From NCBI GenBank assembly GCA_038062115.1, contig JBBTXS010000012.1:23141-87140 (forward strand): 64,000 nucleotides of DNA, given 5' to 3'. The stretch comes from Patescibacteria group bacterium. GTDB taxonomy: Bacteria > Patescibacteriota > Microgenomatia > Levybacterales > UBA12049. This document shows, one piece after another, positions 1,649 through 63,830 of the stretch (positions are counted from its first letter, which is position 1; every line of letters starts with the position of its first letter). Under the pieces are notes generated by a model. The model was not told where the DNA came from, ran no database searches, and was given only the letters and a program-made list of their open reading frames with translations. The position numbers were made by a program, and so were the translations under genes.

Positions 1649-1751
1649 GCTCACATTGGGACTTTTCAAAAGCCTGCGTTTGGGGACTTTGGACGAGAGA
1701 TTGCGTTTGGAGGTCTGCAAAGCCCAAATTGTAGGATGGGAAAAGTTGCCG
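1649..1751. repeat. Left arm of a perfect 103-bp inverted repeat flanking the serine recombinase gene
   Basis: Its reverse complement is identical to 3198..3300. It contains sub-repeats gcgtttgggg and gcgtttggagg. Confidence 0.9.
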
Positions 1752-1799
1752 GTTAAAAGAGAAGAAAAAAACGCAAAAATTAATAAGAAATAAACTGCC

Positions 1800-3362
1800 A
1801 TGAAATATATAGGATATTGCAGGAAATCAACGGATGAAAAAGATAGACAGATTTTATCTATAGAAGCTCAAATAGCAGAGCTGACCGAATTTGCTAGACG
1901 CGAAGGTCTGGAAATTTCAGAATTTATTACAGAGGCAAAGACAGCAAAAATTCCAGGCCGTGAACAATTTGACAAACTCTTAATGCTGCTTGAAAAAGGA
2001 AAAGCTCAAGGAATTATCTCATGGCATCCCGACCGCTTAGCTCGTAATTCCATTGATGGCGGAAAGATTATTTACTTACTCGATACAGGAAAACTTCTTG
2101 ACCTAAAATTCCCATCACATTGGTTTGAGAATACACCGCAAGGGAAATTTATGCTTAGTATCGCTTTTAGTCAGTCGAAATATTATATTGACAATCTTTC
2201 CGAGAATGTTAAAAGAGGTTTAAGACAAAAATTAAGAAACGGTGTTTATCCCGGAAAAGCATTTTGGGGATATGCGAACAATAAAGAGTTGGGAATTATT
2301 GAGGTTGATGTGACAGAGTCCAAGATTATCAAAAAGGCTTTCCAGTTATTTGCTAGTGGCGGAAAAACTTTTATGGATATTTCCCGCTTCTTACATAAGC
2401 ATGGACTTACCCAAAAAAACGGCAAAGATCTAAAAATAGACAGGATAAAAGAAATTCTTTCAAATAAATTTTACATTGGCATCATCTTTTACGCAGGAGA
2501 ATACTACGAAGGAAAACATAAGTTGTTTATTTCGAAAACATTATTTGACCGAGCGCAAAAACAGTTCAAATTCACTGAAAGATCAAAGCCCAATAACAAA
2601 CACAATTTATCTTTCTTAGGACTGTTGAAATGCGGTGAATGTAAAGCAAGTATTACCGGAGAAATGAAAATAAAATATTACAAAGAAACCCAAAGAAAAG
2701 CTGAATATATTTATTACAGTTGTACTAAAAAACTGGGAAACTGTTTGCAGAAACCAATTCCAGAGCCGGAACTGGAATTACAAATAAGAAAAGCGGTTAG
2801 CGATGTGGCCTTGCCCGAAAGTTGGGCTAGCGATTGGTATAAATGGCTTGAAAGAGATGAGATAACAGAAAAACAATTGAAAGAAGAAAATTTACAGAAA
2901 TTAAATGAAGAAATAAAAGCTCTGGATCAAAAATTAAATTTTCTTTTAGATAGTTACTTGGACAGCGTTATTGATGCCGATATCTACAAGAAAAAGAAAA
3001 ATGAATTATTCGAGGAGAAACTAAGAAAACAAGAAGAAATTACCAAGTTGCAGACCAATGGTTCAAGTTGGCTCGAACCTTTCAAGGAATTCGTAGATAG
3101 CGCATTACAATGCGGAAAAATTGCGCGCGAAAAAAAAACAAAAGAAGAATTGGCATTCTTCGCAAAAACTGTCGGCTCGAACTTCTTTTTAACTGATCGG
3201 CAACTTTTCCCATCCTACAATTTGGGCTTTGCAGACCTCCAAACGCAATCTCTCGTCCAAAGTCCCCAAACGCAGGCTTTTGAAAAGTCCCAATGTGAGC
3301 GGGATACGGGAGTCGAACCCGTCTTTTCAGATTGGAAATCTGACGTTGAACCGCTCAACTAA
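1800..3362 (+). CDS. Large serine recombinase (resolvase/invertase N-terminal domain, recombinase domain and zinc ribbon). The ORF has no stop until it has read through the right inverted repeat and tRNA-Gly, so the true 3' end is uncertain.
   Basis: The N-terminus YCRKSTDEKDRQILSIEAQ...RLARN is a serine-recombinase catalytic motif. The Cys cluster CGECKASITGEMK...YYSCTKKLGNC is a zinc ribbon typical of large serine recombinases, followed by a coiled-coil region. Confidence 0.8.
   Translation: MKYIGYCRKSTDEKDRQILSIEAQIAELTEFARREGLEISEFITEAKTAKIPGREQFDKLLMLLEKGKAQGIISWHPDRLARNSIDGGKIIYLLDTGKLLDLKFPSHWFENTPQGKFMLSIAFSQSKYYIDNLSENVKRGLRQKLRNGVYPGKAFWGYANNKELGIIEVDVTESKIIKKAFQLFASGGKTFMDISRFLHKHGLTQKNGKDLKIDRIKEILSNKFYIGIIFYAGEYYEGKHKLFISKTLFDRAQKQFKFTERSKPNNKHNLSFLGLLKCGECKASITGEMKIKYYKETQRKAEYIYYSCTKKLGNCLQKPIPEPELELQIRKAVSDVALPESWASDWYKWLERDEITEKQLKEENLQKLNEEIKALDQKLNFLLDSYLDSVIDADIYKKKKNELFEEKLRKQEEITKLQTNGSSWLEPFKEFVDSALQCGKIAREKKTKEELAFFAKTVGSNFFLTDRQLFPSYNLGFADLQTQSLVQSPQTQAFEKSQCERDTGVEPVFSDWKSDVEPLN
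3198..3300. repeat. Right arm of the 103-bp perfect inverted repeat
   Basis: It is the exact reverse complement of 1649..1751 and overlaps the 3' end of tRNA-Gly by about 3 bp. Confidence 0.9.
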
Positions 3363-3368
3363 TCCCGC
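3298..3368 (-). tRNA. tRNA-Gly (anticodon UCC)
   Basis: Manual fold of the reverse complement gives acceptor GCGGGAT/ATCCCGC, D-stem GTTG/CAAC, anticodon stem TCAGA/TCTGA with loop TTTCCAA, and T-stem ACGGG/CCCGT with loop TTCGACT. Confidence 0.85.
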
Positions 3369-3521: not shown

Positions 3522-3605
3522 GCCGCGGTGGTGGAATGGTAGACACGAAGGCCTTAAGAGCCTTTGTTCCAAAAGAACGTGAGAGTTCGACTCTCTCCCG
3601 CGGCA
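3522..3605 (+). tRNA. tRNA-Leu (anticodon UAA), class II with a long variable arm
   Basis: Acceptor GCCGCGG/CCGCGGC, anticodon stem AAGGC/GCCTT with loop CTTAAGA, variable-arm hairpin GTTC-CAAAA-GAAC, T-stem GAGAG/CTCTC with loop TTCGACT. Confidence 0.8.
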
Positions 3606-3607
3606 CT

Positions 3608-3681
3608 CGGGGAGTAGCTCAGTTGGCTAGAGCGCACGGTTTGGGACCGTGAGGTCGGAGGTTCAAGTCCTCTCTCCCCGA
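3608..3681 (+). tRNA. tRNA-Pro (anticodon UGG)
   Basis: Acceptor CGGGGAG/CTCCCCG, D-stem GCTC/GAGC, anticodon stem CACGG/CCGTG with loop TTTGGGA, T-stem GGAGG/CCTCT with loop TTCAAGT. Confidence 0.85.
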
Positions 3682-6724: not shown

Positions 6725-7498
6725 ATGAAAACACTAAATCTTCTTCTTACATTGTCTTCCCTAAACGTCATTTTAGTTACAATAGAAAGATTTTCTTTCA
6801 CAACAAAAATTATCTTACAACCATATAGTTTTCTAAGACTTCATGAAGTATTCCAAATAACAGTGCTAATACTTATAACTATTGTTATCCCCTTTTTTCT
6901 ATTAAAAGAAATTACTCATAATTTTGATTCGCTAAAAACTGCAAAAGGCACAATCTTAGGACTTTTTTTCGTAGTTGGCGTTTATTTATATGGCACTGGA
7001 AACGGGGTACACGAACTCGCAAGCTACTTATTTAATACATTTTGTCCTATAAAAAATTTTTCATCCTTACAATGCCAAAGCATGTATTTTAATGATTACT
7101 ATTTTGGAAACATATTGTATTTTGTAGGAGCGTTCTTAATAAATATATCTTTGATAATTTTTGAGCGAATAAAACCTAACATTAATTTCTCTAAGAAAGA
7201 TTTAGCCGTAACTTCTATAAATAGTCTTATTCTTGCATTTGCAATTTTTGCTTATTCAGCTTTTGATCGGGTGTTAGTTGGTCTTGTCTATTCTATGTTT
7301 ACTATGATTGTAGCCTATTTCTTTTTATTTACCGCGCACCACAATGCCCCGCTCGTCAGGACAATGCCCCGCCCGTTAGGTCGTGGTGCGGGGTTTACTT
7401 GGAAGAAAAAGTATATTTATATTCCATTTACTTTGTATATAACAATCGCCTATACAATTGGAACCCTAGCCTCAATAGCGATTCGATTTATTCGATAA
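6725..7498 (+). CDS. Polytopic membrane protein of unknown function; its C-terminal region carries an in-frame small repeat element
   Basis: Multiple hydrophobic helices. The ORF could start at 6650, but 6725 (MKTLNLLL) looks more plausible. Residues ...TAHHNAPLVRTMPRPLGRGAGFT... are encoded by the repeat at 7332..7399. Confidence 0.45.
   Translation: MKTLNLLLTLSSLNVILVTIERFSFTTKIILQPYSFLRLHEVFQITVLILITIVIPFFLLKEITHNFDSLKTAKGTILGLFFVVGVYLYGTGNGVHELASYLFNTFCPIKNFSSLQCQSMYFNDYYFGNILYFVGAFLINISLIIFERIKPNINFSKKDLAVTSINSLILAFAIFAYSAFDRVLVGLVYSMFTMIVAYFFLFTAHHNAPLVRTMPRPLGRGAGFTWKKKYIYIPFTLYITIAYTIGTLASIAIRFIR
7332..7399. repeat. Small GC-rich hairpin repeat (family C, ends in GGTGCGGGGTTTACT); related to 26621..26724
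   Basis: Terminal inverted repeat cgcaccac/gtggtgcg, tandem sub-units (a)caatgccccgc, and the same 3' terminus ggtgcggggtttact as the copy at 26.7 kb. Confidence 0.7.
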
Positions 7499-12721: not shown

Positions 12722-14107
12722 TTATTTGTATAGAATATTTGATCTCAACTTGCGGTGATAGAAAATTGCAAATCTGTGAGCTTCGTCGCGGATTCGCTGT
12801 GTAAGATGGAGGACTGGCGAGTCCTTTGGAAGGAAAATTTCGACAAAGCTTGCTCTGTCGTCATTCTGAGGAGCGTTAACGACTCCAGAATCTCTCCTTT
12901 CAGTGTAATTAAAGGAGACTCTGGACGCGCTCGTTCCTCGCTTGCCAGAATGACGGTTTAAGCTTAGGGGAATAATAATTGTCTCCTCCCTTTTTGCAAG
13001 TCCTATAACTGGAATTTGCATACCCTTTTCTTTTAAAGCCATAAGAGCAGAGGATACTTGACCTTTTCCCCCATCAACTATTATTAAATCGGGCATTGGC
13101 CATTCTTTGTGATTGAGCCTTCGTCCTATAACTTCTTTAATCATTGCAAAATCGTTTGGAACAGGATAAAAATTTTTAATTTTAAACCTTCTATATAAAG
13201 ATGAATCTTTGTCTCCATTAATAAAAACTACCATAGATCCAGTAGCAGATTTTCCTTGGATATTAGATATATCGTAGCATTCTATTCTTTCTAATTTTTC
13301 AGCATGTATTCCATTTTGGGAGAGTAAGCATCGTAGACTAGACAACTGATTATCTAGTGTGTCTTGAGTTAAGTTTGGGTTAACTTTATGATCAAATTGA
13401 TTGTAGGCTGGATTTGTAATTAGTTTTATGGCATCTAGTTTTTTTTGAATTAGAGCTGCTTTTTCAAATTCTTCAAGTTTACTTAAATTATCTCTTTCTT
13501 TTTTAAGATCTTTAACAACTTTTTTTGTTTTGCCATTTAAGAAAGTAATAAGATGATTAATGTTTGATCTATATTCCTTATTGCCAACAACCTCTGGACA
13601 TGGGCAAAGTCCTAAATGGTAGTATAGGCAAAGCTTTTTTTGGTGATTTATGGTGGATTGAAACGGAAAAATTTTTCGTACAGTTTTTAAGACTAAGCGT
13701 AATGCCTGAGCGTTTGGAAATGGGCCAAAATATATAGATTTTTTGTCCTGAGCTTTCCTTGCAATTAAAACTTTAGGATATTTATCTACAGTAATTCGTA
13801 TAAGGGGATATGCTTTTCCATCAGTAAGCCGTACATTATATTTTGGCTTATATTTTTTAATGTAATTTGCTTCTAACAATAGTGCTTCTATTTCTGAGGC
13901 AACTGAAATTGTTTTTATTTTTTTGATCTTTGAAATCAAAATTTTTGTCTTTGGGCTAAGCAAGTTTAGATTAGTAAAATAAGAACTAACCCGCTTTTTA
14001 AGACTTTTTGCTTTTCCAACGTACAAGACTTCATTGTTTTGGTTTAAAAATAGATATACCCCAGGCCCTTGGGATAATGATCGATAAAAGTATGCTGATA
14101 GTAACAA
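12722..14107 (-). CDS. uvrC: Excinuclease ABC subunit C (UvrC), short form; carries an in-frame palindromic-element insertion near the C-terminus
   Basis: GIY-YIG domain (GPGVYLFLNQNNEVLYVGKAKSLKKRVSSYF), UvrBC motif, LAKREE...RIRDEAHRFAIFYHRK. An insert of about 35 aa (RHSGKRGTSASRVSFNYTERRDSGVVNAPQNDDRASF) lies between LAKREE and EIFLP. Confidence 0.85.
   Translation of the reverse strand: MLLSAYFYRSLSQGPGVYLFLNQNNEVLYVGKAKSLKKRVSSYFTNLNLLSPKTKILISKIKKIKTISVASEIEALLLEANYIKKYKPKYNVRLTDGKAYPLIRITVDKYPKVLIARKAQDKKSIYFGPFPNAQALRLVLKTVRKIFPFQSTINHQKKLCLYYHLGLCPCPEVVGNKEYRSNINHLITFLNGKTKKVVKDLKKERDNLSKLEEFEKAALIQKKLDAIKLITNPAYNQFDHKVNPNLTQDTLDNQLSSLRCLLSQNGIHAEKLERIECYDISNIQGKSATGSMVVFINGDKDSSLYRRFKIKNFYPVPNDFAMIKEVIGRRLNHKEWPMPDLIIVDGGKGQVSSALMALKEKGMQIPVIGLAKREETIIIPLSLNRHSGKRGTSASRVSFNYTERRDSGVVNAPQNDDRASFVEIFLPKDSPVLHLTQRIRDEAHRFAIFYHRKLRSNILYK
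12859..12955. repeat. Palindromic element, family A (termini GTCATTCTGAG...CAGAATGAC), in frame inside uvrC
   Basis: Terminal inverted repeat gtcattctg/cagaatgac, internal imperfect palindrome tccagaatctctccttt/aaaggagactctgga, GC-rich relative to the flanks. Confidence 0.75.
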
Positions 14108-26624: not shown

Positions 26625-26724
26625 TACCCAGAATGCCCTGACCGTAAGGTCAGGGATGAATGGGTTATTTCCGCGAAGCGAACCCCTAATGCCCCGAGCG
26701 TAAGCTCGGGGTGCGGGGTTTACT
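26621..26724. repeat. Family C hairpin repeat (ends GGTGCGGGGTTTACT) with two GTAA-tetraloop hairpins
   Basis: Hairpins ccctgacc-gtaa-ggtcaggg and ccccgagc-gtaa-gctcgggg. The terminus is shared with 7332..7399. Confidence 0.7.
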
Positions 26725-29500: not shown

Positions 29501-29595
29501 TGTCATTGCGATCAGTCAGGCTTAGCCTGACTGAGAAGCAATCTCTCATCAATGGGATTGCCACGTCGCTCGTTCCTCGCTCCTCGCAATGACAC
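29501..29595. repeat. Palindromic element, family A (tgtcattgcga...ctcgcaatgacac)
   Basis: Termini plus internal palindromes tcagtcaggcttagcctgactga and gcaatc...gattgc. Intergenic between cysS and the glycoside-hydrolase-like gene. Confidence 0.8.
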
Positions 29596-31365: not shown

Positions 31366-31797
31366 ATGCCAAAACTCAAAAGTCATGACCCTGAGCGAAG
31401 TCGAACGGGTCAAAAGTTAGAATGGCAGGAAGCAAAAGAGGTAAAAAAAAATATAGAAAATATTCTTAAGGTTTTAAATTTGCCTCACATCGATTCTTCT
31501 AGAATTTTTTGTTTTAGAACCAAAGGATCAAAATCAAGATCATATGCACGCATTTGGTCTATGCCAAAAATCTTTCAGACAGTTCTTAATGTAAAACCAG
31601 CTTATGTAATAGAAGTGATAGCCCGGCATTTTGATAGATTAGATACAGACGGAAAGAAAAAAGTATTAATTCACGAACTTTTGCATATTCCTAAAAATTT
31701 TTCTGGAGCGCTCTTACCTCACCGTAGTCGCAATCGGCATCTTGGAGCATTGGTGAATAGATTGTTTAAAGAATATAAGAAAATTTCTAATTCCTAA
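31366..31797 (+). CDS. Small HExxH zinc-metallopeptidase-like protein (DUF45/YgjP-, WLM- or SprT-like)
   Basis: VLIHELLHIPKNFSGALLPH contains HExxH plus a downstream His. It starts 10 bp after the DUF458 gene. Confidence 0.4.
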   Translation: MPKLKSHDPERSRTGQKLEWQEAKEVKKNIENILKVLNLPHIDSSRIFCFRTKGSKSRSYARIWSMPKIFQTVLNVKPAYVIEVIARHFDRLDTDGKKKVLIHELLHIPKNFSGALLPHRSRNRHLGALVNRLFKEYKKISNS

Positions 31798-31912
31798 TTA
31801 ACCTAATTTCTAAATAAATCCCAAAAACTAAGTTCCAATTGGGTTATTTAGACATTTAGGAATTGATTAGGTCAATTAGAAATTAGTAATTAGAAATTTA
31901 TATGATTACTAT
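31775..31912. repeat. First copy of a 138-bp perfect direct repeat (second copy at 32114..32251)
   Basis: Identical to 32114..32251. It spans the last 23 bp of the HExxH gene, the intergenic region, and ATGATTACTAT (the first 11 bp of the holA-like gene). Confidence 0.9.
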
Positions 31913-32115
31913 CCTGAGTTTCCCATTTTCGAGTAGCAAAATTAAAAAGCTTGATTTGACAATCTTTTTTTGAAAAAATTTAGTGCGAAACCGCACTACC
32001 GAAAGATTTCAAAGACAAAAGCTAATAGAAGAAATGCTATGGTTTCTAGCAGACTTTCGAGCCTAGAAATGGTTTTTTGCTAAAATTAAACCGCACTAAT
32101 TGGGAAACTCAGGAT
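31911..32115. mobile_element. 205-bp MITE-like non-autonomous element with 15-bp perfect terminal inverted repeats
   Basis: Terminal repeats atcctgagtttccca / tgggaaactcaggat, internal hairpin tagtgcg-aaa-ccgcacta, and no ORF. Confidence 0.7.
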
Positions 32116-32251
32116 AAGAAAATTTCTAATTCCTAATTAACCTAATTTCTAAATAAATCCCAAAAACTAAGTTCCAATTGGGTTATTTAGACATTTAGGA
32201 ATTGATTAGGTCAATTAGAAATTAGTAATTAGAAATTTATATGATTACTAT
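32114..32251. repeat. Second copy of the 138-bp direct repeat; contains the functional start of the holA-like gene
   Basis: Identical to 31775..31912. Confidence 0.9.
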
Positions 32252-42844: not shown

Positions 42845-42857
42845 AAACAGTATTGTG

Positions 42858-42965
42858 GCTGGGTCATAAATACCCATTTGTCATTCCGAGCGAGTGTAGC
42901 GAGTCGAGGAATCTCGTTGAAGGAGATTTCTCGGCAAGCTCGAAATGACAATTGTGACCCAGTCA
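42858..42965. repeat. Family A palindromic element with the extended terminal inverted repeat (c)tgggtcat...tgacccagtca; near-identical to 52151..52260
   Basis: Its core ttgtcattccgagcgagtgtagcgagtcgaggaatctcgttgaaggagatttctcggcaagctcgaaatgacaa differs by one base from the copy at 52.2 kb. Confidence 0.85.
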
Positions 42966-42998
42966 TAAACAGTATTATAGCAAATATTTACACCCATA

Positions 42999-43061
42999 TC
43001 ATGCTGAACTTGTTTCGGCATGAAGAGCAGGTTAGATCCTGAAATGAATTCAGGATGACAC
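42999..43061. repeat. Family B palindromic element (TCATGCTGAA...TTCAGGATGACAC); related to 61038..61089
   Basis: catgctgaacttgtttcggcatg hairpin plus atcctgaaatgaattcaggat hairpin, and a shared terminus ggatgacac. Confidence 0.7.
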
Positions 43062-52126: not shown

Positions 52127-52150
52127 AACGTTTTGTAATATATGAGATTA

Positions 52151-52260
52151 TGACTGGGACATAAATACTCATTTGTCATTCCGAGCGAGTGTAGCGAGTC
52201 GAGGAATCTCTTTGAAGGAGATTTCTCGGCAAGCTCGAAATGACAATTATGACCCAGTCA
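52151..52260. repeat. Family A palindromic element (near-identical to 42858..42965), between atpA and atpH
   Basis: Same core with one mismatch, extended terminal repeat tgactggg.../...cccagtca, and a flanking direct repeat atatgagatta. Confidence 0.85.
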
Positions 52261-52591
52261 CATATGAGATTATATCATCTAGCCTACTTTTTAGATTGAA
52301 TTCGTAAACATTGTCGTTATCTACGATTTTTACCCCTAACATTAAAGATGGATCAATTTTGTAAACTATTTTTTTATTAGGAAATAATTTTTCAAATCCT
52401 ATGTTACTGTATGCCTTAAAAGGTGTAGTAACTATAATGTTTTTTTTATCTTCGTAATTTTTAAGCGCATCAATATACTGTTTAAGTTCGAATCTTGTAA
52501 AACAGTTTACAATGGCATATACTTTGTTGCTGTCTAAAATATCATTTTTATAACTTTCTGCCACCAAATTTTTTAGTTTGTTTCTGGTCAT
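52247..52591 (-). CDS. atpH: ATP synthase F1 delta subunit (OSCP), short form
   Basis: Operon position between atpF and atpA, and a C-terminus (DPSLMLGVKIVDNDNVYEFNLKSRL) that resembles delta. Confidence 0.6.
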   Translation of the reverse strand: MTRNKLKNLVAESYKNDILDSNKVYAIVNCFTRFELKQYIDALKNYEDKKNIIVTTPFKAYSNIGFEKLFPNKKIVYKIDPSLMLGVKIVDNDNVYEFNLKSRLDDIISYVTGS

Positions 52592-57000: not shown

Positions 57001-57313
57001 TTTTAATAAGATTTTTGTATCCTGTATTATTTTTTGCCAAAAGTATTAGATGGTTTGAGTCGTTGTCAACTCCCGCCTCTTTATCGTGTCTTGATCTTTT
57101 GGATATGTAGATTTCGCATCCAATAATTGGTTTAATACCTAAAGCTTGGCATGTTTTATAAAAGGTAATCGTTCCGTACATATTTCCATGATCTGTAATC
57201 GCTAACGCTTTCATATTAAGTTCTTTGGCACGCTTGACCATTTCTGGGATTTTTGAAAGCCCATCTAAAAGAGAATATTCACTATGATTATGAAGGTGAA
57301 CAAAATTTGCCAT
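54095..57313 (-). CDS. dnaE: DNA polymerase III alpha subunit
   Basis: PHP domain (FVHLHNHSEYSLLDG), polymerase core, and an OB domain; 1072 aa. Confidence 0.95.
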   Translation of the reverse strand: MANFVHLHNHSEYSLLDGLSKIPEMVKRAKELNMKALAITDHGNMYGTITFYKTCQALGIKPIIGCEIYISKRSRHDKEAGVDNDSNHLILLAKNNTGYKNLIKIISIANLEGYYYRPRTDIELLRQFSNGLICLSACVNGYISDPLIQNQEETAVKRAEVLYKIFGEGNFYLELQKHINVEDQDILNEKLIALSKKMGLPLVATNDNHYIYNTDAEAQEILLCIQTQTALNTPNRKLSMISSPDFYMKSQEEMKGLFIQTQTALENTSRIADMCNVEISLGKWIMPIFDVPNNKTPQEFMKNKVEEGLKNRYKEITREIRERAEYELSIILKKGYETYILIVADFVNWAKNHGITVGPGRGSNAGSIVSYALGISDIDPLFFKLPFERFLNPMRPSPPDIDLDFADNRRDEVIEYVTQKYGRDKVAQIITFGTMEARGSVRDTGRALGMPYAVCDRIAKMIPPGWQGHAMTIEKALEQSTDLKTVYATEPDAKKLLDLATRLEGVVRHASMHAAGVVIADRPLTEYTPLQRETNGEKIVTQYDMYTVGEDGVGLLKIDLLGLRNLAIIEEALRFIKENQVINIDLSQASFDDKKTFELLSSGETTGIFQLESSGMRRYIKELKPTSIFDLQAMVALYRPGPMANIPEFVKRKHSASHIKYPDPRLKEILKESYGVITFQDDVLLTAIKVAGYSWLETDKLRKAIGKKIPSEMKKQHDKFVQGCVAGGMKKDNAQNLWNLFEPFAGYGFNKAHAAGYATIAFRTAYLKAHFPVEFMTALLTAESRGTTGPTKNEKIAQAVAECKRLKLTVLSPDVNKSASDFTIEDKKNIRFGLSAIKNVGEAAINSILTARRTGLFKSLVDFYDRVDPGPVNKKTVESLIKAGAMDSFGNRANLLISYPEIAENAHRKRKQAQVGQSSLFGDSLGMDNLKRTVSNVDDFSSNEKLAFEKEFLGLYLTSHPQLDNLLSLKSVISHEIDLLTEEKEGTRVKIGGIIETTKRIFTKSGNEMAFSTVGDEKGLSVECVIFPRIYERHKNLLIKDSVVIIEGKLDTKNDKPTVIAEKISTKNHFSS

Positions 57314-57322
57314 AGCTCAATA

Positions 57323-57412
57323 TGTCATTGCGAGCGAACTTTAGTTCGCGCGGCAATCTCTTTTGATGGGGATTGCTTCGTCTCAGGCTTCGCCTGATCC
57401 TCGCAATGACAC
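57323..57412. repeat. Family A palindromic element between dnaE and gatB
   Basis: tgtcattgcgag...ctcgcaatgacac with internal palindromes gcgaactttagttcgc, gcaatc...gattgc and tcaggcttcgcctga. Confidence 0.8.
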
Positions 57413-58857
57413 TATAATAATTGCTTTTTAATCTCTCTTTTTACTATATTAGGATCTATACTTTTTAAAATTTTTCTTAATACCATTCCTACCAAAAACA
57501 TAATCACATTTGCTTTACCTTTTTTATAATCGCTTATTGCTCTTGGATTGTCAAGAATTACTTGTTTTACTGTTTTTTCAAGGTACTTCTGATCAACAGT
57601 CGTTTTTTGCGTTGACGTAATAATACTTCGAACTAACTGCGCTGGCATTGTTTTTTCTAAATCTACTTTTTTATTGATAATCCAGTTAGCAATAACCTTT
57701 GTATTTATAGATTCCTGATTCTTAATTCTTAATTCACGATTCACTTTTACCGCTTCTTCGAAATATTCTGCAATCCCTCTATCTTTTGTTAATATTTCAC
57801 TGTCGTAATCTGACAAACCATAAATTTTTGTGAATCGTTGAAACTTTTGATCGGGTAGTTCTGTCATTTGAAATTTGAAATTTGAAATTTGTAATTCCAC
57901 CCACCGAATGGGTGGTATATCTGGCTCTGGGAAGTATCTATAATCCATTGTTTCTTCTTTTACTCTTTGAGACACTGTAATTTGTTTTTTGCTATCCCAA
58001 CCCCTTGTTTCTTGGATTGGAGTTTTTCCTGATTCTAAAATCTTTTTCTGCCTTTCTATCTCGTAATTTATTGCCTTTTCGACAAAACGGAAAGAATTAA
58101 TATTTTTTACTTCGACTTTATAGGTAGGCAACCTCTCACTGTCATTGCGAGCGAAGCGAAGCAATCCCTCTACTTTTGAGATTGCTTCGTCGCCGCGTCT
58201 GACGCGGCTTCCTCGCAATGACATTTCAGATAGTGAAATGTTAGGCTCCAACCGCATCTGCCCTCTCTCCATGTCTGCGTCTGACACGTCTAAGTATCTA
58301 ACGATTTGCTGGAGTTTTTTTAGATATTCAACGACCTCTGTTGCAGATTCAAAATCAGGTTCAGTAACTATTTCAACAAGCGGAACTCCTGATCGATTAA
58401 AATCTATCAGCGTTACTTTTTCCCCTTTTACAATAGAATGAATTAGCTTACCAGTATCTTCCTCCATGTGAACCCGACGTATCCGAATTATTTTTTTACC
58501 CTCACCTCGAAGGTGTTTATCCGTTTCACCTTCCAGGTGTACATATCCACCGACTGCAAATGGTTGATCGTATTGTGAAATCTGGTATCCCTTAGGAAGG
58601 TCTGGGTAAAAATAATTTTTCCGATCAAACTTTGAAAATAGAGGAATCTTGCAATTTAATGCAAGCCCAATCATCACACACCACTCAATTGCTTTTTTGT
58701 TTGGAACTGGTAGGGCTCCAGGGAGCCCTAAGCAGACTGGACAAACGTGAGTATTTGGGTCTTTACCAAAATAATCCACAGAACAGCCACAAAACATTTT
58801 AGATTTTGTTTTTAACTCAACATGAACCTCAAGACCTATGACTGGTTTGTACCCCAT
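57412..58857 (-). CDS. gatB: Asp/Glu-tRNA(Asn/Gln) amidotransferase subunit B, with an in-frame palindromic-element insertion
   Basis: MGYKPVIGLEVHVEL..., a zinc-binding CGCS, and KNINSF. An extra ~28 aa (EMSLRGSRVRRGDEAISKVEGLLRFARNDSE) sits in the loop before KVEVKNINSF. Confidence 0.9.
   Translation of the reverse strand: MGYKPVIGLEVHVELKTKSKMFCGCSVDYFGKDPNTHVCPVCLGLPGALPVPNKKAIEWCVMIGLALNCKIPLFSKFDRKNYFYPDLPKGYQISQYDQPFAVGGYVHLEGETDKHLRGEGKKIIRIRRVHMEEDTGKLIHSIVKGEKVTLIDFNRSGVPLVEIVTEPDFESATEVVEYLKKLQQIVRYLDVSDADMERGQMRLEPNISLSEMSLRGSRVRRGDEAISKVEGLLRFARNDSERLPTYKVEVKNINSFRFVEKAINYEIERQKKILESGKTPIQETRGWDSKKQITVSQRVKEETMDYRYFPEPDIPPIRWVELQISNFKFQMTELPDQKFQRFTKIYGLSDYDSEILTKDRGIAEYFEEAVKVNRELRIKNQESINTKVIANWIINKKVDLEKTMPAQLVRSIITSTQKTTVDQKYLEKTVKQVILDNPRAISDYKKGKANVIMFLVGMVLRKILKSIDPNIVKREIKKQLL
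58140..58224. repeat. Family A palindromic element inserted in frame within gatB
   Basis: tgtcattgcgagcgaagcgaagcaatc...gattgcttcg...ctcgcaatgacat. The reading frame stays open through the element. Confidence 0.8.
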
Positions 58858-59596
58858 TACTTCTCCTTTCCTTAACAAAATTTTGAACTTCTTGATAACT
58901 TTTCTGCCATGGCCAATAAAGCGAACCTGATAGACCATATACAGGAATACAAAAGTTAGGTCGATCTCTATTTATTGATGTCATTTCCGAAACAACAATA
59001 TCTACCGTTTCTTGTACAGTCGTACTTTTAAGATCAACACATTCTGAGAAACGGATAGAACTTAGTATTTGATCAAGTACAACAATGCCTTTAAATAATT
59101 GTGGACCTACTCTATTTTTTGCTAATTCTTCTACGGGGTTTCTTTTAGCATAAGGCTTATTTTCAACAAGAATAACACACAGATTCTCTCGGGGGATCAC
59201 GATCCTATTGAAGTTATACTTAAGATCATGCGTCGCGCTCAAAATAGCAGTTTCAAAAGATTTCTCCAACGTTACATCTGTATTAGAAAGGGATATACTA
59301 GTCTTATTTACGGGATCTACCCAGTTTCTGCTAAAAAGTATCCCTTTTTTTCTTGCAAAACTCTCAGCCACTAATCCATGGAGAAGAATTCCCCGTAGTC
59401 TATCTACTGGTAAATTTGTGAGGCCATTATTGTTATGAATATCCCCTAAGCGGATAAAGCCATGCTTAAATAACAACGGCTCAGTGTGGATGTCTACAAC
59501 TTTATTTATTGCTGCTTCTTGTGCCATTTCAATAAAGCTGGATGAATGTTCAGGACTTACTTCGACATTCATAGTATAGGTTTTTGTTTGTGCCAC
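58829..59596 (-). CDS. Hypothetical protein located between gatA and gatB
   Basis: Intact 255-aa ORF within the gat cluster. It has a weak GDIH motif but no complete metallophosphoesterase signature. Confidence 0.35.
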   Translation of the reverse strand: MAQTKTYTMNVEVSPEHSSSFIEMAQEAAINKVVDIHTEPLLFKHGFIRLGDIHNNNGLTNLPVDRLRGILLHGLVAESFARKKGILFSRNWVDPVNKTSISLSNTDVTLEKSFETAILSATHDLKYNFNRIVIPRENLCVILVENKPYAKRNPVEELAKNRVGPQLFKGIVVLDQILSSIRFSECVDLKSTTVQETVDIVVSEMTSINRDRPNFCIPVYGLSGSLYWPWQKSYQEVQNFVKERRSNGVQTSHRS

Positions 59597-61023
59597 TCTG
59601 TTTCTTGTTCGTATTTATAAGCAACGTTTAGTATTAACGCTTCCGAAAACTGGGGGCCGATGATTTGCATGCCAATGGGTAGACCTTGTTTTGAAAATCC
59701 GCAGGGAACACTGATGCCAGGAAGCCCTGCGATAGAGGACGGTTCTACCAATACATCTGCCATTTCGCCAAACATAGGATGATTTTTGCTAGAGCCAAGA
59801 GGTAACGCTGTTGATGGACTTGTTGGCCCTATAATTACATCTACTCCGCCAGTTGACGGATTAAATGCTTTTTCAAAGTCTTGAATTATAAGTGTTCTAA
59901 CTTTTTGTGCTTTATTGTAATATTGGTCATAGTACCCAGCAGACAATGTATATGTTCCAAGCATTATTCTCCGTTTTGCCTCATCGCCAAAGTAAGATCG
60001 ATCATTACCATACCTAATCCCATCGTATCGCGCAAGATTTGAAGAGACTTCCGAACGCTGAAGAATCGTATATACTGCGATTGCATATTTTGGTGGAAAA
60101 AGTTTAATAGTTTTTATTATTGCACCCTTTTTTTCTAAAACTTTTAAAGCATTATGTACTCCATTTTGAACTTCTTGATCAACACCCTCGAAATAATCAT
60201 TAGAAACTCCTATCTTGACTTTCTCAATCGATCGATTGAGATTTTTGGTATAGTATGGTACTTTTTTGGGAGAAGTAGTGGCATCAAAAGAATCTTTTCC
60301 TGCTAATACTTGTAAAATTAATGCACTATCTTCTACAGTTTTTGTAATTGGGCCAGGAGAATCAAGAGAAGACGCCATTGCGATAAGGCCATATCTACTT
60401 ACCCTTCCATAAGTTGGCTTAAGACCTACAACTCCACACCAAGATGCTGGTTGTCGAATAGAACCAGCAGTTTCTGATCCAATTCCAGCAATTGCTTGAT
60501 TAGCTGCAACGCTTGCCGCAGCGCCGCCTGATGATCCACCAGGTAAAAAATTCGTATTCCAAGGATTTTTTGTAGTTCCATAATCAGAAGTTTCGGTTGA
60601 TGATCCATGCGCCCACGCATCCATGTTGGTTTTTCCAAGCATTATCATCCCAGCATCTTTGAGTCGGTTTACAACTGTAGCATCATATGGTGGAATAAAA
60701 TCATCAAGTACCTTACTTGACGCAGTTGTTCGAATACCTTTTGTACAAAAATTATCTTTTATGCTAATAGGGATGCCAAGAAGGGGAAGAGTATTTAATT
60801 GCTCAATTGTTAAATTGTTAAATTGTTTGTCTGCCATTTTTGCAGCTCCGATTGCTTCTTTTTCGCAAACTGTAATAAACGCATTTATCTTTGAGTCGAG
60901 TTTTTTAATTTGGTCTAGGCAGTCTTCGGTAAGTTCGAAAGATGAAAATTTTTTATTCCTTAATCCTTCTTGTGCTTGTTTAATTGTTAGTTGATTTAGT
61001 TTCATAGTTTCTCTCAATGTCAT
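59569..61023 (-). CDS. gatA: Glutamyl-tRNA(Gln) amidotransferase subunit A (amidase signature family)
   Basis: GGSSGGAAASVAA (amidase signature) with the Ser-cisSer-Lys triad context. Confidence 0.9.
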   Translation of the reverse strand: MTLRETMKLNQLTIKQAQEGLRNKKFSSFELTEDCLDQIKKLDSKINAFITVCEKEAIGAAKMADKQFNNLTIEQLNTLPLLGIPISIKDNFCTKGIRTTASSKVLDDFIPPYDATVVNRLKDAGMIMLGKTNMDAWAHGSSTETSDYGTTKNPWNTNFLPGGSSGGAAASVAANQAIAGIGSETAGSIRQPASWCGVVGLKPTYGRVSRYGLIAMASSLDSPGPITKTVEDSALILQVLAGKDSFDATTSPKKVPYYTKNLNRSIEKVKIGVSNDYFEGVDQEVQNGVHNALKVLEKKGAIIKTIKLFPPKYAIAVYTILQRSEVSSNLARYDGIRYGNDRSYFGDEAKRRIMLGTYTLSAGYYDQYYNKAQKVRTLIIQDFEKAFNPSTGGVDVIIGPTSPSTALPLGSSKNHPMFGEMADVLVEPSSIAGLPGISVPCGFSKQGLPIGMQIIGPQFSEALILNVAYKYEQETEWHKQKPIL

Positions 61024-61037
61024 GCTGAATTTATTTC

Positions 61038-61089
61038 AGCATCTATTTTCTGTCATGAGTAAGATTCTGAAACAAGTTCAGGATGACAC
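61038..61089. repeat. Family B palindromic element between gatA and gatC
   Basis: catgctgaatttatttcagcatc hairpin plus gattctgaaacaagttcaggatgacac. Confidence 0.7.
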
Positions 61090-61093
61090 AGAA

Positions 61094-61375
61094 CTATCCA
61101 TCTAGTATTGTTTTTACTTTAAATAAACCATTATGTACAGACTTTGCATTTTTTAAAACTTCTTCTTGAGAAAGCGAGGGTTTTGCTTCATCTTCTCTTG
61201 TAACATTTTCCAGGCCTGTTACTTGACTTGTAGGTTCAATATTTTCTGTAGCAACTTCTTTTAGTTTGTTTATATACTGTAAGATTGAAAAGAGTTGTTT
61301 TTGAAATTTTTCCTTTTTATCTTCTTTTATCTGTAGATTCGCAAGTTTTGCAATATGGGAAACATCTATTTTCAT
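61094..61375 (-). CDS. gatC: Glutamyl-tRNA(Gln) amidotransferase subunit C
   Basis: ~93 aa: MKIDVSHIAKLANLQIKEDKKEKF...PTSQVTGLENVTREDE... resembles GatC. The ORF could extend to 61540, but only by crossing a palindromic intergenic region. Confidence 0.7.
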   Translation of the reverse strand: MKIDVSHIAKLANLQIKEDKKEKFQKQLFSILQYINKLKEVATENIEPTSQVTGLENVTREDEAKPSLSQEEVLKNAKSVHNGLFKVKTILDG

Positions 61376-61491
61376 AAATTTGCCTTTCCCCCGAGTTTTG
61401 TTAATTAATGATGCAAAGGATCTCTTTTCTAGGAGATCCCTCTGCCTGCTGACCTCGGGATGAGTCTGAAATAACATTCCAGACTCAGTTA

Positions 61492-62358
61492 TTATACCGA
61501 AATACCCAAGCGTTTCGCAATTGTCTCGTGGGCTTGCCATTCAAGGGAGTCGTTAAGAGAGGAGAGGTTGATAGATTTTTTGTACTTTCTCTTAAGAGCA
61601 AGTTTTATTAGGTAATCTGCAAAATGGGGATTTTTTGGGAGGATTGGGCCGTGTAAATAGCTTCCAAAACTGTTTTTATAAACTACTCCTTCTGTTTTAT
61701 CTTCTCCATTATTCCCAAAACCCTTAAGAACTTTACCCAAAGGTTTTATCTCTTTGCCAAGATAAGTTCTACCCCCATGATTCTCGAACCCAACCAGATA
61801 ATCCTTTTTGTCATTGCGAGGAGTTCTGAGCTTGTCGAAGGACGACGAAGCAATCCCATTGATTTGAGATTGCTTCACTTCGTTCGTAATGACATCTGTT
61901 TTGATGACAACATTTCCAATAAGTCTCGGTACTTTTTCTCCCCGGTTTTCTGTACATAAATCTAGGATACATAGTCCATCGATAATATTTCCGTCTGCTT
62001 CTTTGTAGTATTTGCCTAAAAACTGATAAGCGCCGCAAATATAAAGGCCTGTAACCCCATCCTCTATAATCTCTTTTAGCGCTTTTACCTTTTCTTTGCT
62101 AAAATCATGGGAAACGATTTTTTGCTGCGTATCTTGTGCTCCGCCCATAAATAGAAAATCACAAGATCTTAAATCTTGAATCTTAAATCCTAAATCTAAA
62201 TGTTTTACCTTAGTCTCAATCTTTCGCCATTCACATCGCTTTTGAAGACAAATAATATTACCTCTATCGCCATAGGTACTCATTAACTCTGGATACAACC
62301 AACCAATAACCAACTTATAATTCATACACTTATTGTCATCCCGAGCGAAGGGATGCAC
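61492..62358 (-). CDS. gatD: GatD-like glutamine amidotransferase (CobB/CobQ-type GATase partner of MurT), with an in-frame palindromic-element insertion
   Basis: It is adjacent to murT, has a GATase-like Cys context (LYICGAYQFLG), and ends in HGP. An inserted ~29 aa (DVITNEVKQSQINGIASSSFDKLRTPRNDKKD) is encoded by 61809..61895. Confidence 0.7.
   Translation of the reverse strand: MHPFARDDNKCMNYKLVIGWLYPELMSTYGDRGNIICLQKRCEWRKIETKVKHLDLGFKIQDLRSCDFLFMGGAQDTQQKIVSHDFSKEKVKALKEIIEDGVTGLYICGAYQFLGKYYKEADGNIIDGLCILDLCTENRGEKVPRLIGNVVIKTDVITNEVKQSQINGIASSSFDKLRTPRNDKKDYLVGFENHGGRTYLGKEIKPLGKVLKGFGNNGEDKTEGVVYKNSFGSYLHGPILPKNPHFADYLIKLALKRKYKKSINLSSLNDSLEWQAHETIAKRLGISV
61809..61895. repeat. Family A palindromic element inserted in frame within gatD
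   Basis: tgtcattgcgag...gaagcaatcccattgatttgagattgcttc...cgtaatgacat. Confidence 0.8.
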
Positions 62359-62443
62359 CAGACGGTGCGTCCCGAAGTCGAGGGATCTCCTGCAATTGCG
62401 ATGAAAGAGATTTCTCTCAGGCTTCGCCTGATCGAAATGACAA
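62333..62443. repeat. Family A palindromic element (111 bp) between murT and gatD
   Basis: ttgtcatcccgag...cgaaatgacaa. It shares the module tctcaggcttcgcctgatc with the copy at 57.3 kb and has an internal palindrome gggatgcaccagacggtgcgtccc. Confidence 0.8.
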
Positions 62444-62459
62444 ATGAACTAAATAAAAA

Positions 62460-63830
62460 TTACAATATTTTCTTTCCTGTTAATATTTTTCTAACTTCAA
62501 GCATTGCAGAATATGTCGGCAAGATATATAAGATATCACTTTTATTCATTTCTTCTAGCCCTTGCATAATAGCTCGTTTTAAATCTTTAATAATTTTAAA
62601 TTTTACACTTTTATTTTTTATTTTTAATCTTTCATTTTTAATTTCAGAAGAACTCGAATATTTTAGTCTTAAACCCATATCGTAGGCACGCTCTCCGCTT
62701 ATAATAATACTTTTTATTCCATCAGGTTCTTCTGTGTCTACATCCCAAATCCACGAAACATCTCGGCCATCTGGAATGCGATCATTCAAAACAAACACTA
62801 CATTTCTCGCACCTAAACTTGCTACAGTCCTAAGGGATTCGTTAAAGCTTGTTGGGTTTTTGGATAGAAATATTTGTGCTTTTTTACCGTTGATATCAAA
62901 TATTTCTTGCCTGCCAAATGCTGGAATAAATGTTCTTAAGGATTTGTTAATTATCTCATCAGAAACCCCAATCTTTTTAGTAACTAGAACTGTCGCAAGA
63001 ATGTTATAAAGATTATATGTCCCTGTCAACCTGCTTGGTGGGGGAGTCGAAAAAATATTTTTGGGTCGTATATTTTCGCAGTTTTTACATTCCCAATTTC
63101 CAAGATGAGAGTAATAAACTGAATGATAATAAAGTTTCGAGTTACAGTTTGGACAATAAGTTGAGTCAGCTGCGTGTTGATATGCTGTTTGAGCGAGCTT
63201 TTTATCGTTAAGCCCAAAGTAGAACACCAAGGTGTAGCTACGTTTTAACACCCGATGTTCAATCCTATATCTGTTCTGTTGGAATCCTAGGTAGGCAATC
63301 TGCGGATCATCTGCGTTAAGGATAAGTTGAATTTTTGGAAGGAGATGTCGAATGGCATCTCTCCACTTACCAGCAATTGTATTAACTTCGCCATATCTGT
63401 CTAATTGATCTCTAAATAAATTAAGAAGAATTAAATAATCAGGAGTTATCTCTTTTAACGCTAATGGTAAAGTTGCTTCGTCAACTTCAAATATCGCATA
63501 ATCATAATTAATTGTCGAAAGTATATTACTATGTAGTACTATACTTGACGCAATTCCGTTTAAAAGATTTGCACCGGATTCATTTTGAAAAGTTCTATAA
63601 TTAGCATTTTTTAAGATAGTTTGGATGAGTTTACCAGTTGTTGTTTTTCCATTAGTTCCTGCAATTAAAATTATTTTAAGCTGCGGATTTGCTTCAATAA
63701 GTTCTCTGATAAAGTTTTTATTTGCTAAAAGCGCAATATGCCCCGGCCACGTTGATCCATTACCAATGCGAAAAGAAGTACTTATTGAAGAAAGAAGCTT
63801 TCCAATTATTATGAGAAAAAAATTAATCAT
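62460..63830 (-). CDS. murT: MurT (Mur-ligase-family subunit of lipid II isoglutaminyl synthase)
   Basis: Mur ligase P-loop GTNGKTTT and the C-terminal MurT Cys4 ribbon CPNCNSKLYY...CKNCEN. Confidence 0.85.
   Translation of the reverse strand: MINFFLIIIGKLLSSISTSFRIGNGSTWPGHIALLANKNFIRELIEANPQLKIILIAGTNGKTTTGKLIQTILKNANYRTFQNESGANLLNGIASSIVLHSNILSTINYDYAIFEVDEATLPLALKEITPDYLILLNLFRDQLDRYGEVNTIAGKWRDAIRHLLPKIQLILNADDPQIAYLGFQQNRYRIEHRVLKRSYTLVFYFGLNDKKLAQTAYQHAADSTYCPNCNSKLYYHSVYYSHLGNWECKNCENIRPKNIFSTPPPSRLTGTYNLYNILATVLVTKKIGVSDEIINKSLRTFIPAFGRQEIFDINGKKAQIFLSKNPTSFNESLRTVASLGARNVVFVLNDRIPDGRDVSWIWDVDTEEPDGIKSIIISGERAYDMGLRLKYSSSSEIKNERLKIKNKSVKFKIIKDLKRAIMQGLEEMNKSDILYILPTYSAMLEVRKILTGKKIL

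Follow-up and report, generated by a model that had tools for sequence, protein, structure and literature searches.

How an enzyme of cell-wall synthesis comes to contain a stretch of protein that is encoded by a dispersed palindromic repeat is the question raised by one gene in a 64-kb stretch of DNA from a Patescibacteria group bacterium (contig JBBTXS010000012.1; the whole stretch is herein referred to as the window, and its GC content is 35%). The gene, gatD, encodes the glutamine amidotransferase partner of MurT (61492..62325, minus strand; 277 aa from MNYK, with the stop codon ending at 61492), and it contains an 86-nt element of a repeat family that is present in four copies in the window (herein family A). 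Our preferred explanation, to which we assign a probability of roughly 0.85, is that this segment is a nonautonomous palindromic repeat, namely an inverted dimer of repetitive extragenic palindromic (REP) units tagged by (C/T)GTC, that inserted in a tolerant loop of the protein and was kept in frame.

The element runs from terminus TGTCAT to terminus ATGACA (61809..61894, minus strand), reads TGTCATTGCGAG...GAAGCAATC-CCATTGATTTGA-GATTGCTTC...CGTAATGACA on the plus strand and codes for V145–D172 together with one base of the codon on either side. Its peptide is DVITNEVKQSQINGIASSSFDKLRTPRNDKKD (D-VITNEVKQSQINGIASSSFDKLRTPRND-K in the frame of the gene; VITNEVK and QSQINGIASSSFDK are among the peptides within the insert), and the open reading frame (ORF) continues through it without a stop. 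A first-pass annotation, made from the DNA letters alone, had described an in-frame insert of about 29 residues in an intact ORF and had assigned it to the same repeat family as an insert in gatB; the peptide that it quoted matches, and a profile derived from all four copies in the window recovers the gatD copy at E=5e-19, a value that makes chance resemblance of a native loop highly improbable.

Like its relatives, the gatD element consists of two units placed tail to tail with their tags pointing outward. One unit is intact (61866..61894, minus strand; TGTC-ATTAC-GAACGAAGTGAA-GCAAT-CTC in mRNA sense) and is a single G>A change away from a widespread 26-mer, GTCATTGCGAACGAAGTGAAGCAATC; the second, right-hand unit (61809..61857, plus strand; TGTC-ATTGC-GAGGAGTTCTGAGCTTGTCGAAGGACGACGAA-GCAAT-CCC) has an expanded inner loop, is partly decayed and accounts for the length differences among gatD orthologues. 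An 8-nt spacer between the two tails (61858..61865) forms the loop of a central 9-bp hairpin (GAAGCAATC/GATTGCTTC), and the termini TGTCATTGCGAG and CTCGCAATGACA pair over 11–12 bp as terminal inverted repeats. The folding energy of the gatD element is -17.1 kcal/mol as DNA (z -4.1) and -29.6 kcal/mol as mRNA-sense RNA, the family-A copies as DNA spanning -17 to -32 kcal/mol (z -4 to -9 against shuffled controls) and the mRNA-sense RNA of the elements -30 to -50 kcal/mol.

The four family-A copies have their 12-nt termini and the central 9-bp hairpin in common, and two of them are intergenic, one between dnaE and gatB (57323..57411; 89 nt) and the other downstream of cysS (29501..29594; 94 nt), the latter with a spacer, ATCAATGG, that is nearly the same as that of the gatD copy. 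The copy in gatB is in frame (58140..58223, minus strand; 84 nt) and encodes ...SLRGSRVRRGDEAISKVEGLLRFARND...; its inner hairpins and spacer differ from those of the gatD element, which is therefore a separate copy, and the first-pass annotation was right to treat the two insertions as independent. Its implied grouping of an insert in uvrC (gene at 12722–14107) with family A has to be revised, however, for we rejected a family-A copy there: the in-frame uvrC insert (12859..12955, minus strand; 97 nt, encoding NRHSGKRGTSASRVSFNYTERRDSGVVNAPQNDD) is a CGTC-tagged REP dimer of a sister subfamily with ATTCTGG stems.

Family A is one part of a larger repeat population whose unit consensus is (C/T)GTC, AT+N3, GA(G)..., a variable inner hairpin, ...GA, N3'+AT and C(T/C)C. 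Each terminus of the gatD element, read on its own strand, is TGTC; YGTC opens all 20 of the closed units in the window, and the uvrC copy begins with CGTC. The unit stem is a covarying helix: the 5-bp pairs include ATTGC/GCAAT, ATTCC/GGAAT, ATTTC/GAAAT, ATCTC/GAGAT, ATCCC/GGGAT and ATTCT/AGAAT, and of the 24 tagged starts, 20 are closed within 50 nt by the triplet complementary to their own (eight triplet types), as against 0.4 expected from the triplets of other units. A family-A unit has a 5-bp Watson–Crick stem and a 12–31-nt loop with nested hairpins, and unit tails are CTC, CCC or CTA in the window and CCA/CCC in copies from Novosphingobium and Aulosira. Canonical units, which are short (8-bp stem, 5-nt loop, 3-nt tail), lie at 61018–61045, 61059–61088 and 43036–43059, the first two, with CTA/CTT tails, forming a TGTC pair in the gatA/gatC gap (61018..61088).

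These units are far more frequent in the window than expected. The terminus TGTCATTGCGAG occurs 21 times with at most two mismatches (3.3 expected; maximum of seven in shuffled sequences), the hairpin arm GAAGCAATC occurs eight times (0.66 expected), and 21 strict units are found as against one in a reversed-sequence control. This amounts to 3.3 units per 10 kb; the density is 0.5 per 10 kb over 37 other loci from Patescibacteria, cyanobacterial loci are at the level of the control, and genomes like L007 have a REP load close to zero. The four-copy profile also matches other Patescibacteria loci (L024, L025, L028 and L040). Three of about ten dimers in the window are intragenic (uvrC, gatB and gatD) and the others intergenic. 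Indeed, nearly all intergenic gaps of the murT-gatD-gatC-gatA-gatB-dnaE cluster hold a REP-type element, including a heterodimer of ATCCC and ATTTC units that fills the murT–gatD gap (62334..62442), whereas the same genes abut or overlap in the REP-poor relative L003 (murT and gatD overlap there). No Rfam family matches the elements, either at gathering thresholds over the whole window or in E-value mode over 57200–62600.

That the segment was inserted in gatD is indicated by orthologues with an empty site. In L003, L004 and L007 the GatD protein (P0031, 248 aa) reads ...ETRIKKLVGFENHGG / ...IIIETRIKKLVGFENHGG at the insertion point, and its alignment with the window protein has one gap of exactly 29 codons, which places the net insertion at 61804..61890 (minus strand; 87 nt). 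The length given in the first-pass annotation, about 29 residues, agrees with the 29-codon net gain over the empty site; the element as defined by its termini is 86 nt long, which three does not divide, and one additional base makes up the net gain. The alignment with Staphylococcus aureus GatD likewise falls into two blocks (query 6–145 and 176–268 against chain 5–139 and 142–231), leaving about 28 residues without counterpart. Orthologues carrying the same segment, which the first-pass annotation had named as evidence that would tell against insertion, do exist to some extent: P0002, P0003 and P0013 have the same element with the same boundaries, and the distant metagenome-assembled genome L025 has a family-A-like element in the same loop. 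The insertion stands despite these orthologues because empty sites exist, because other REP families fill the loop, and because family A also occurs between genes. A shared spacer among the orthologous gatD copies was considered as proof of a single ancestral insertion and dropped, the spacer of the intergenic copy at 29501–29594 being nearly the same.

An assembly artefact would be another way to obtain such a gene, given that the source is a metagenome-assembled genome and that palindromic repeats can mislead assemblers; however, the identical GatD protein, accession MEK7534376.1, is recorded on several NCBI and ENA contigs, and assemblies made independently from other samples also contain the insert (L001, L002, L005, L006 and L092), so that we consider an artefact exceedingly unlikely.

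The identity of the host protein is well supported, and its homologues place the source in Patescibacteria, near Candidatus Levybacteria. Its product matches Pfam GATase_3 (E=3e-33), its closest PDB match is S. aureus GatD (5n9m/6gs2; E=4e-48), and murT, recognized by the Pfam domains Mur_ligase_M and MurT_C, lies directly upstream (62460..63830, minus strand). The S. aureus residues C94, H189 and R128 are required for activity, R128 binding glutamine (PMC5871853); they correspond to C97, H225 and R134 of the window protein and are invariant in our alignments. Fold, catalytic residues and the murT neighbor together make a solid case for the glutaminase subunit of lipid II isoglutaminyl synthase, and extrapolation from Staphylococcus and Streptococcus suggests that gatD would be essential in the source organism. 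The insertion site is 12 residues past the glutamine-binding Arg134. In an AlphaFold2 (AF2) model of moderate quality (mean predicted local distance difference test score, pLDDT, of 68), which we used for local topology alone, insert residues 150–172 have pLDDT <50 and stand between strands 136–143 and 176–180; this order of strand, insert and strand puts the insertion site at the tip of a beta-hairpin.

Orthologous copies of the element differ by whole-codon indels (element 74–86 nt; loop segments 44–48 aa) and are always stop-free, which implies translation. The insert is thus probably translated as a surface loop of about 29 residues, itself probably disordered, and with its catalytic residues invariant GatD is plausibly still functional. 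The termini of the element pair in a 12-bp stem that would bring the flanks together, and one could therefore envisage that the transcript loses the segment, or that translation skips it, and that it is absent from the protein. This we hold to be scarcely credible: frame and freedom from stops are kept in every orthologue despite the changes in length, no Rfam family or intron-like feature matches, and excision of 86 nt would itself shift the reading frame.

A common rule of length and phase for the gatD, gatB and uvrC inserts, as raised in the first-pass annotation, is not borne out: the elements are 86, 84 and 97 nt long, and their left ends stand in three codon phases (xxT GTC ATT, xTG TCA TTG and CGT CAT). 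The right ends of all three read AAT GAC x, and orthologues also use A ATG ACx (...ARMT); the ATGACA end yields TGA in one phase, and that phase is therefore excluded. Between one and three of the six frames are open in each element. The sole rule for the in-frame elements is the trivial one that the net length be divisible by three and the frame open.

The same loop of GatD has been used repeatedly. Among 120 GatD orthologues (64–78% identity), it is the sole site of large internal indels; the additional residues there number from 0 to about 37, and their peptides are of many kinds that are not related to one another. Family A is found there in the window, L001, L005 and L092 (74–86 nt, starting 17 nt after LIGN), and a family-A-like element in L025 (18 nt after LIGN); L089 has a CGTC ATTCTGG dimer (94 nt; 17 nt after LIGN), L090 a canonical dimer with 8-bp stems (64 nt; 15 nt after LIGN), and L091, L024 and L026 have further REP dimers (59, 85 and 94 nt; starting 20, 36 and 21 nt after LIGN, respectively). 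Taken together, these sequences point to at least six separate REP dimer events in the GatD loop of related Levybacteria. The loop segment is 23–28 aa long in most GTDB species representatives and 36–70 aa in nine, four of which (L024, L025, L026 and L028) are among the REP-richest loci; it is in REP-rich loci that the loop is occupied. A neighbor-joining tree of the 120 proteins with the loop masked shows the loop types interspersed; it is too poorly resolved to count insertions and was not used. GatB behaves similarly: the loop after RLEPNIS is 10–13 aa long in about 25 loci, and REP dimers occupy it in the window (family A), in L003, L004 and L007 (another subfamily), in L025 and in L031, and judged from these copies it is also a recurrent landing site. 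Since some relatives lack an insert in these two loops and others have one REP dimer or another there, the loops offer an unusually clear natural experiment. Many GatD orthologues (P0017, P0019, P0021 and others; L008:6509–6637; L034:7429–7566) carry in the loop an AT-rich palindromic insert with the peptide HDLRFKIYE...NHKSYFINHKS, a 26-nt piece of which recurs elsewhere in L026; such inserts suggest that at least one further repeat superfamily uses the GatD loop.

This concentration could reflect a preference in insertion rather than survival, with a site- or structure-specific enzyme directing elements to the loop or to an element already resident there. The arrival of at least six kinds of REP in the sole large-indel site would fit such targeted integration, as would the identical boundaries that family-A alleles have in gatD genes which are otherwise not nearest kin, and some REP dimers sit within larger palindromes, as has been described for other CGTC dimers (PMC3733652). 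Against targeting speak the offsets of the inserts, which vary between 15 and 36 nt on the left and between 5 and 20 nt on the right, and the conserved flanking motif that we looked for at the orthologous inserts and did not find. The loop, moreover, has also taken up inserts other than REPs, and its length differs among REP-poor genomes, and recombination over a tract of about 270 nt (see below) can account for the patchy distribution without targeting. On balance, targeted integration seems to us unlikely, and a permissive loop in which arriving repeats survive in frame remains our preferred explanation.

Several observations nevertheless weigh against a passive insertion of this kind. The first concerns mobility: there is no target-site duplication at any of the four family-A copies or at the orthologous inserts; no repeat-linked transposase was found by Pfam among about 55 window ORFs, the only candidate being a large serine recombinase (1800–3362) unrelated to the repeats; and no ORF family recurs beside 80 metagenome copies when the neighboring ORFs are clustered. 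The second is that the gatD element is more conserved than expected of a neutral passenger. Third codon positions are identical between the window and L001 at 25/27 sites in the element and at 140/243 in the remaining gatD (Fisher p=2.5e-4), and between the window and L005 at 25/29 and 157/246 sites (p=0.02); both element differences from L001 are nonsynonymous. The third is that gatD genes with family A at the same boundaries have a mutual nucleotide identity of 0.78 outside the loop, the same as their identity with genes that carry other elements; same boundaries without closer kinship require an extra step, either recombination or site-specific reinsertion.

The conservation could be taken as a sign that the element has been exapted, being kept either for the peptide loop that it gives MurT/GatD or for a stable intragenic DNA or RNA hairpin that affects expression of murT-gatD-gatCAB. 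The nucleotide conservation of the unit core exceeds that of synonymous sites, the predicted mRNA structures are very stable (see above), and the insert has been kept in several lineages. What is conserved, though, is the intact unit, and its 26-mer (GTCATTRCGAACRAAGTGAAGCAATC) has exact matches in at least 120 stretches of metagenome DNA, the contigs ranging from 29 to 75% GC; none of the 80 metagenome loci examined (L093–L172) falls in gatD, a plasmid of Novosphingobium is identical to a family-A arm over 27/27 nt, and an Aulosira plasmid carries a full dimer (loci L087 and L088). As the 26-mer is conserved across genomes and mostly outside genes, its conservation belongs to the family and not to the gatD locus. 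Empty-site orthologues are also common, near-identical strains hold unrelated loop elements, the substitutions that are present alter amino acids, the right-hand unit decays freely, and confidence of the AF2 model in the insert is low. Exaptation therefore appears improbable to us.

A candidate for the extra step is provided by L001 and L090, contigs from the same sample series that carry family A and the canonical dimer, respectively. Across murT, gatD and gatC they show 100% identity outside a tract of about 270 nt centered on the loop, where identity is 50–88% (L001:6300–6640 against L090:1285–1610); the gene that follows holds the start of a second divergent tract. The pattern resembles the replacement of one allele by another through recombination in a population, and a swapped tract in otherwise identical strains indicates that loop alleles are exchanged by homologous recombination. 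Such exchange can explain the patchy distribution, and common boundaries need not mean one old insertion followed by vertical descent.

Searches for a mobilizing enzyme returned neither a REP-associated tyrosine transposase (RAYT) nor any other Y1 transposase in the window or beside the 80 metagenome copies. In the closest family-A-bearing relative, a pair of IS3-family transposase genes (helix-turn-helix and rve) lies between gatD and gatC (L005:2642–4297; L006:4105–5275); as a parent insertion sequence (IS) it was rejected, its ends being unrelated to the REP termini. Phages were considered as vectors and rejected, only four IMG/VR contigs and no GenBank phage giving a match. With no target duplication, no transposase and no recurrent neighbor, mobility is something that we infer from the copies themselves.

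We propose, then, that in a heavily REP-colonized genome a single copy inserted in gatD where the protein has a beta-hairpin tip, and that it survived because its net gain was divisible by three, its frame was free of stops and the loop tolerates extra residues. The element would be transcribed and translated with gatD, as a surface loop that we presume to be neutral, and loop alleles would then also have spread between lineages by homologous recombination. Mobilization would have occurred in trans, most plausibly by an enzyme acting on single-stranded hairpin DNA, as has been proposed for REPs. A bolder extension, which we regard as doubtful, is that the TGTC-REP core is actively maintained, with sequence-specific machinery common to several phyla copying, converting or reinserting units. 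If true, it would explain the identical 26-mer at 29–75% GC, conservation above that of synonymous sites, and the recolonization and swapping of loop contents; small Patescibacteria genomes, whose REP loads contrast strongly, would in that case lend themselves, as a compact system, to a search for the enzyme by phylogenetic profiling. The repeated colonization, the allele swapping and the conservation of the core make the mobilization and maintenance of CGTC-type REPs testable in small genomes.

The repeats also bear on gene prediction. The best-supported start of gatD is MNYK at 62325, and the listed ORF runs on upstream to a GTG at 62358 within another repeat, the over-extension (62326–62358) reaching the neighboring intergenic element. 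Downstream of gatD lie gatC, gatA and gatB, and the gatC ORF is likewise over-extended upstream (61376–61540), gaining 55 extra residues across a separate hairpin; the true starts are likely to be 61375 for gatC and 62325 for gatD, and automatic annotation would over-extend both. Many odd insertions in proteins of Patescibacteria are likely to be translated repeats, as are small "hypothetical proteins" that contain motifs such as VIANEVKQS or LRFARND. A 255-aa ORF between gatA and gatB (58829–59596, minus strand) has no Pfam match and is not present in L003, where gatA and gatB overlap. MurT has a 15-aa insertion relative to L003 (63240–63284; FQQNRYRIEHRVLKR), the DNA of which is by eye not obviously palindromic or REP-like.

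Other repeats were seen in the window. A 131-nt segment is repeated at 90% identity (42852–42982 and 52147–52277), and in both copies a REP heterodimer is nested in a second, larger palindrome (CTGGGTCAT...ATGACCCAG), an arrangement that resembles the CGTC dimers in host palindromes (PMC3733652). A GC-rich small hairpin repeat unrelated to the TGTC units (AATGCCCCG...CGGGGTGCGGGGTTTACT) is present in two copies at 86% identity (7363–7399 and 26688–26724), and a perfect 138-nt direct repeat (31775–31912 and 32114–32251, 339 nt apart) follows just past a phage-type metallopeptidase gene (31366–31797). The serine recombinase gene at 1800–3362 is bracketed by 118-nt inverted repeats (1649–1766 and 3183–3300; 94% complementary) and adjoins a cluster of tRNA genes (3298–3368, 3522–3605 and 3608–3681); the region 1649–3368 may be an integrative element.

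Among known systems, the window elements come closest to the CGTC-tagged REP superfamily, in which the tag is sometimes TGTC (CCTC being allowed), stems of 8–9 bp begin with A-T, loops are 4–5 nt and a 3-nt tail (CCA) follows (Di Nocera, De Gregorio and Rocco 2013, PMC3733652). Its members are mostly inverted dimers, mainly intergenic, without a dedicated transposase and much alike across phyla; they include Rickettsia RPE-4/-6 (CGTC-4/-1) and Neisseria dRS3 (CGTC-1), and their intragenic dimers encode 20–30 aa, often in genes of replication and repair (PMC3733652). The window elements agree with this superfamily in tag, A-T start, tail, inverted dimer arrangement, dispersal, high copy number and close sequence likeness across phyla, as well as in forming in-frame intragenic dimers, here including one in the repair gene uvrC. 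They differ in that the family-A stem is 5 bp and its loop 12–31 nt, and in that the family-A tail is CTC or CCC rather than CCA. Because canonical short units occur in the same window and in the GatD loop of L090, family A can be regarded as a variant in a genome that also holds canonical members. Patescibacteria are not among the five phyla listed, repeated colonization of one loop is not described there, and the question of what mobilizes and conserves CGTC-type REPs was left unanswered (PMC3733652). In the literature that we searched, we found no published report on REPs in Patescibacteria (Candidate Phyla Radiation).

The Rickettsia palindromic elements (RPEs) offer a parallel at the level of protein, being palindromic repeats in frame in intact, conserved housekeeping genes, probably tolerated at permissive surface positions, in genomes that are reduced in both cases. 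RPE-1 is longer, at about 100–150 nt. The host lineage differs, and here a single loop has been hit repeatedly by different families and exchanged by recombination. The link rests on the assignment of RPE-4/-6 to the CGTC superfamily (PMC3733652).

With the REP doublets that form hairpins (REPINs) and their RAYTs, the window elements share inverted doublets that fold into a long hairpin and many dispersed copies. REPINs are GTAG REP doublets mobilized by Y1 HUH transposases and are usually lineage-specific. In contrast, the tag here is TGTC or CGTC, and the 26-mer is common to contigs of 29–75% GC. By analogy, the REPIN–RAYT system is the likeliest mechanistic counterpart, in which single-stranded hairpin DNA would be mobilized. 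The ATTCC units of the window (TGTC-ATTCC...GGAAT-CTC) have ends like those of the dRS3 consensus (ATTCC.../...GGAAT). The dRS3 units are short, intergenic and mainly known as targets for the integration of prophages and ISs, and they are not known to form in-frame protein inserts.

Miniature inverted-repeat transposable elements, or MITEs, which occur in frame in bacterial genes as the QMITEs of Coxiella do (PMC5896051; reviewed in PMC10969869), are similarly short and noncoding with inverted-repeat ends, and may lie in ORFs and add peptide segments. MITEs, however, go back to an IS whose terminal repeats match theirs, and they duplicate their target site. We found neither feature here; lacking a target duplication and a parent IS (none in the window, and the IS3 ends in L005 unrelated), the window elements are not MITEs in the strict sense. 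The gatD insert is of a known kind, in that selfish DNA can add loops to essential proteins by way of in-frame palindromes; here a permissive loop tolerates such a repeat. What this locus adds is an extension of the CGTC/TGTC REP superfamily to Patescibacteria, the colonization of the same GatD and GatB loops by several families, the swapping of loop alleles at the level of strains and the nucleotide conservation of an intragenic REP core.

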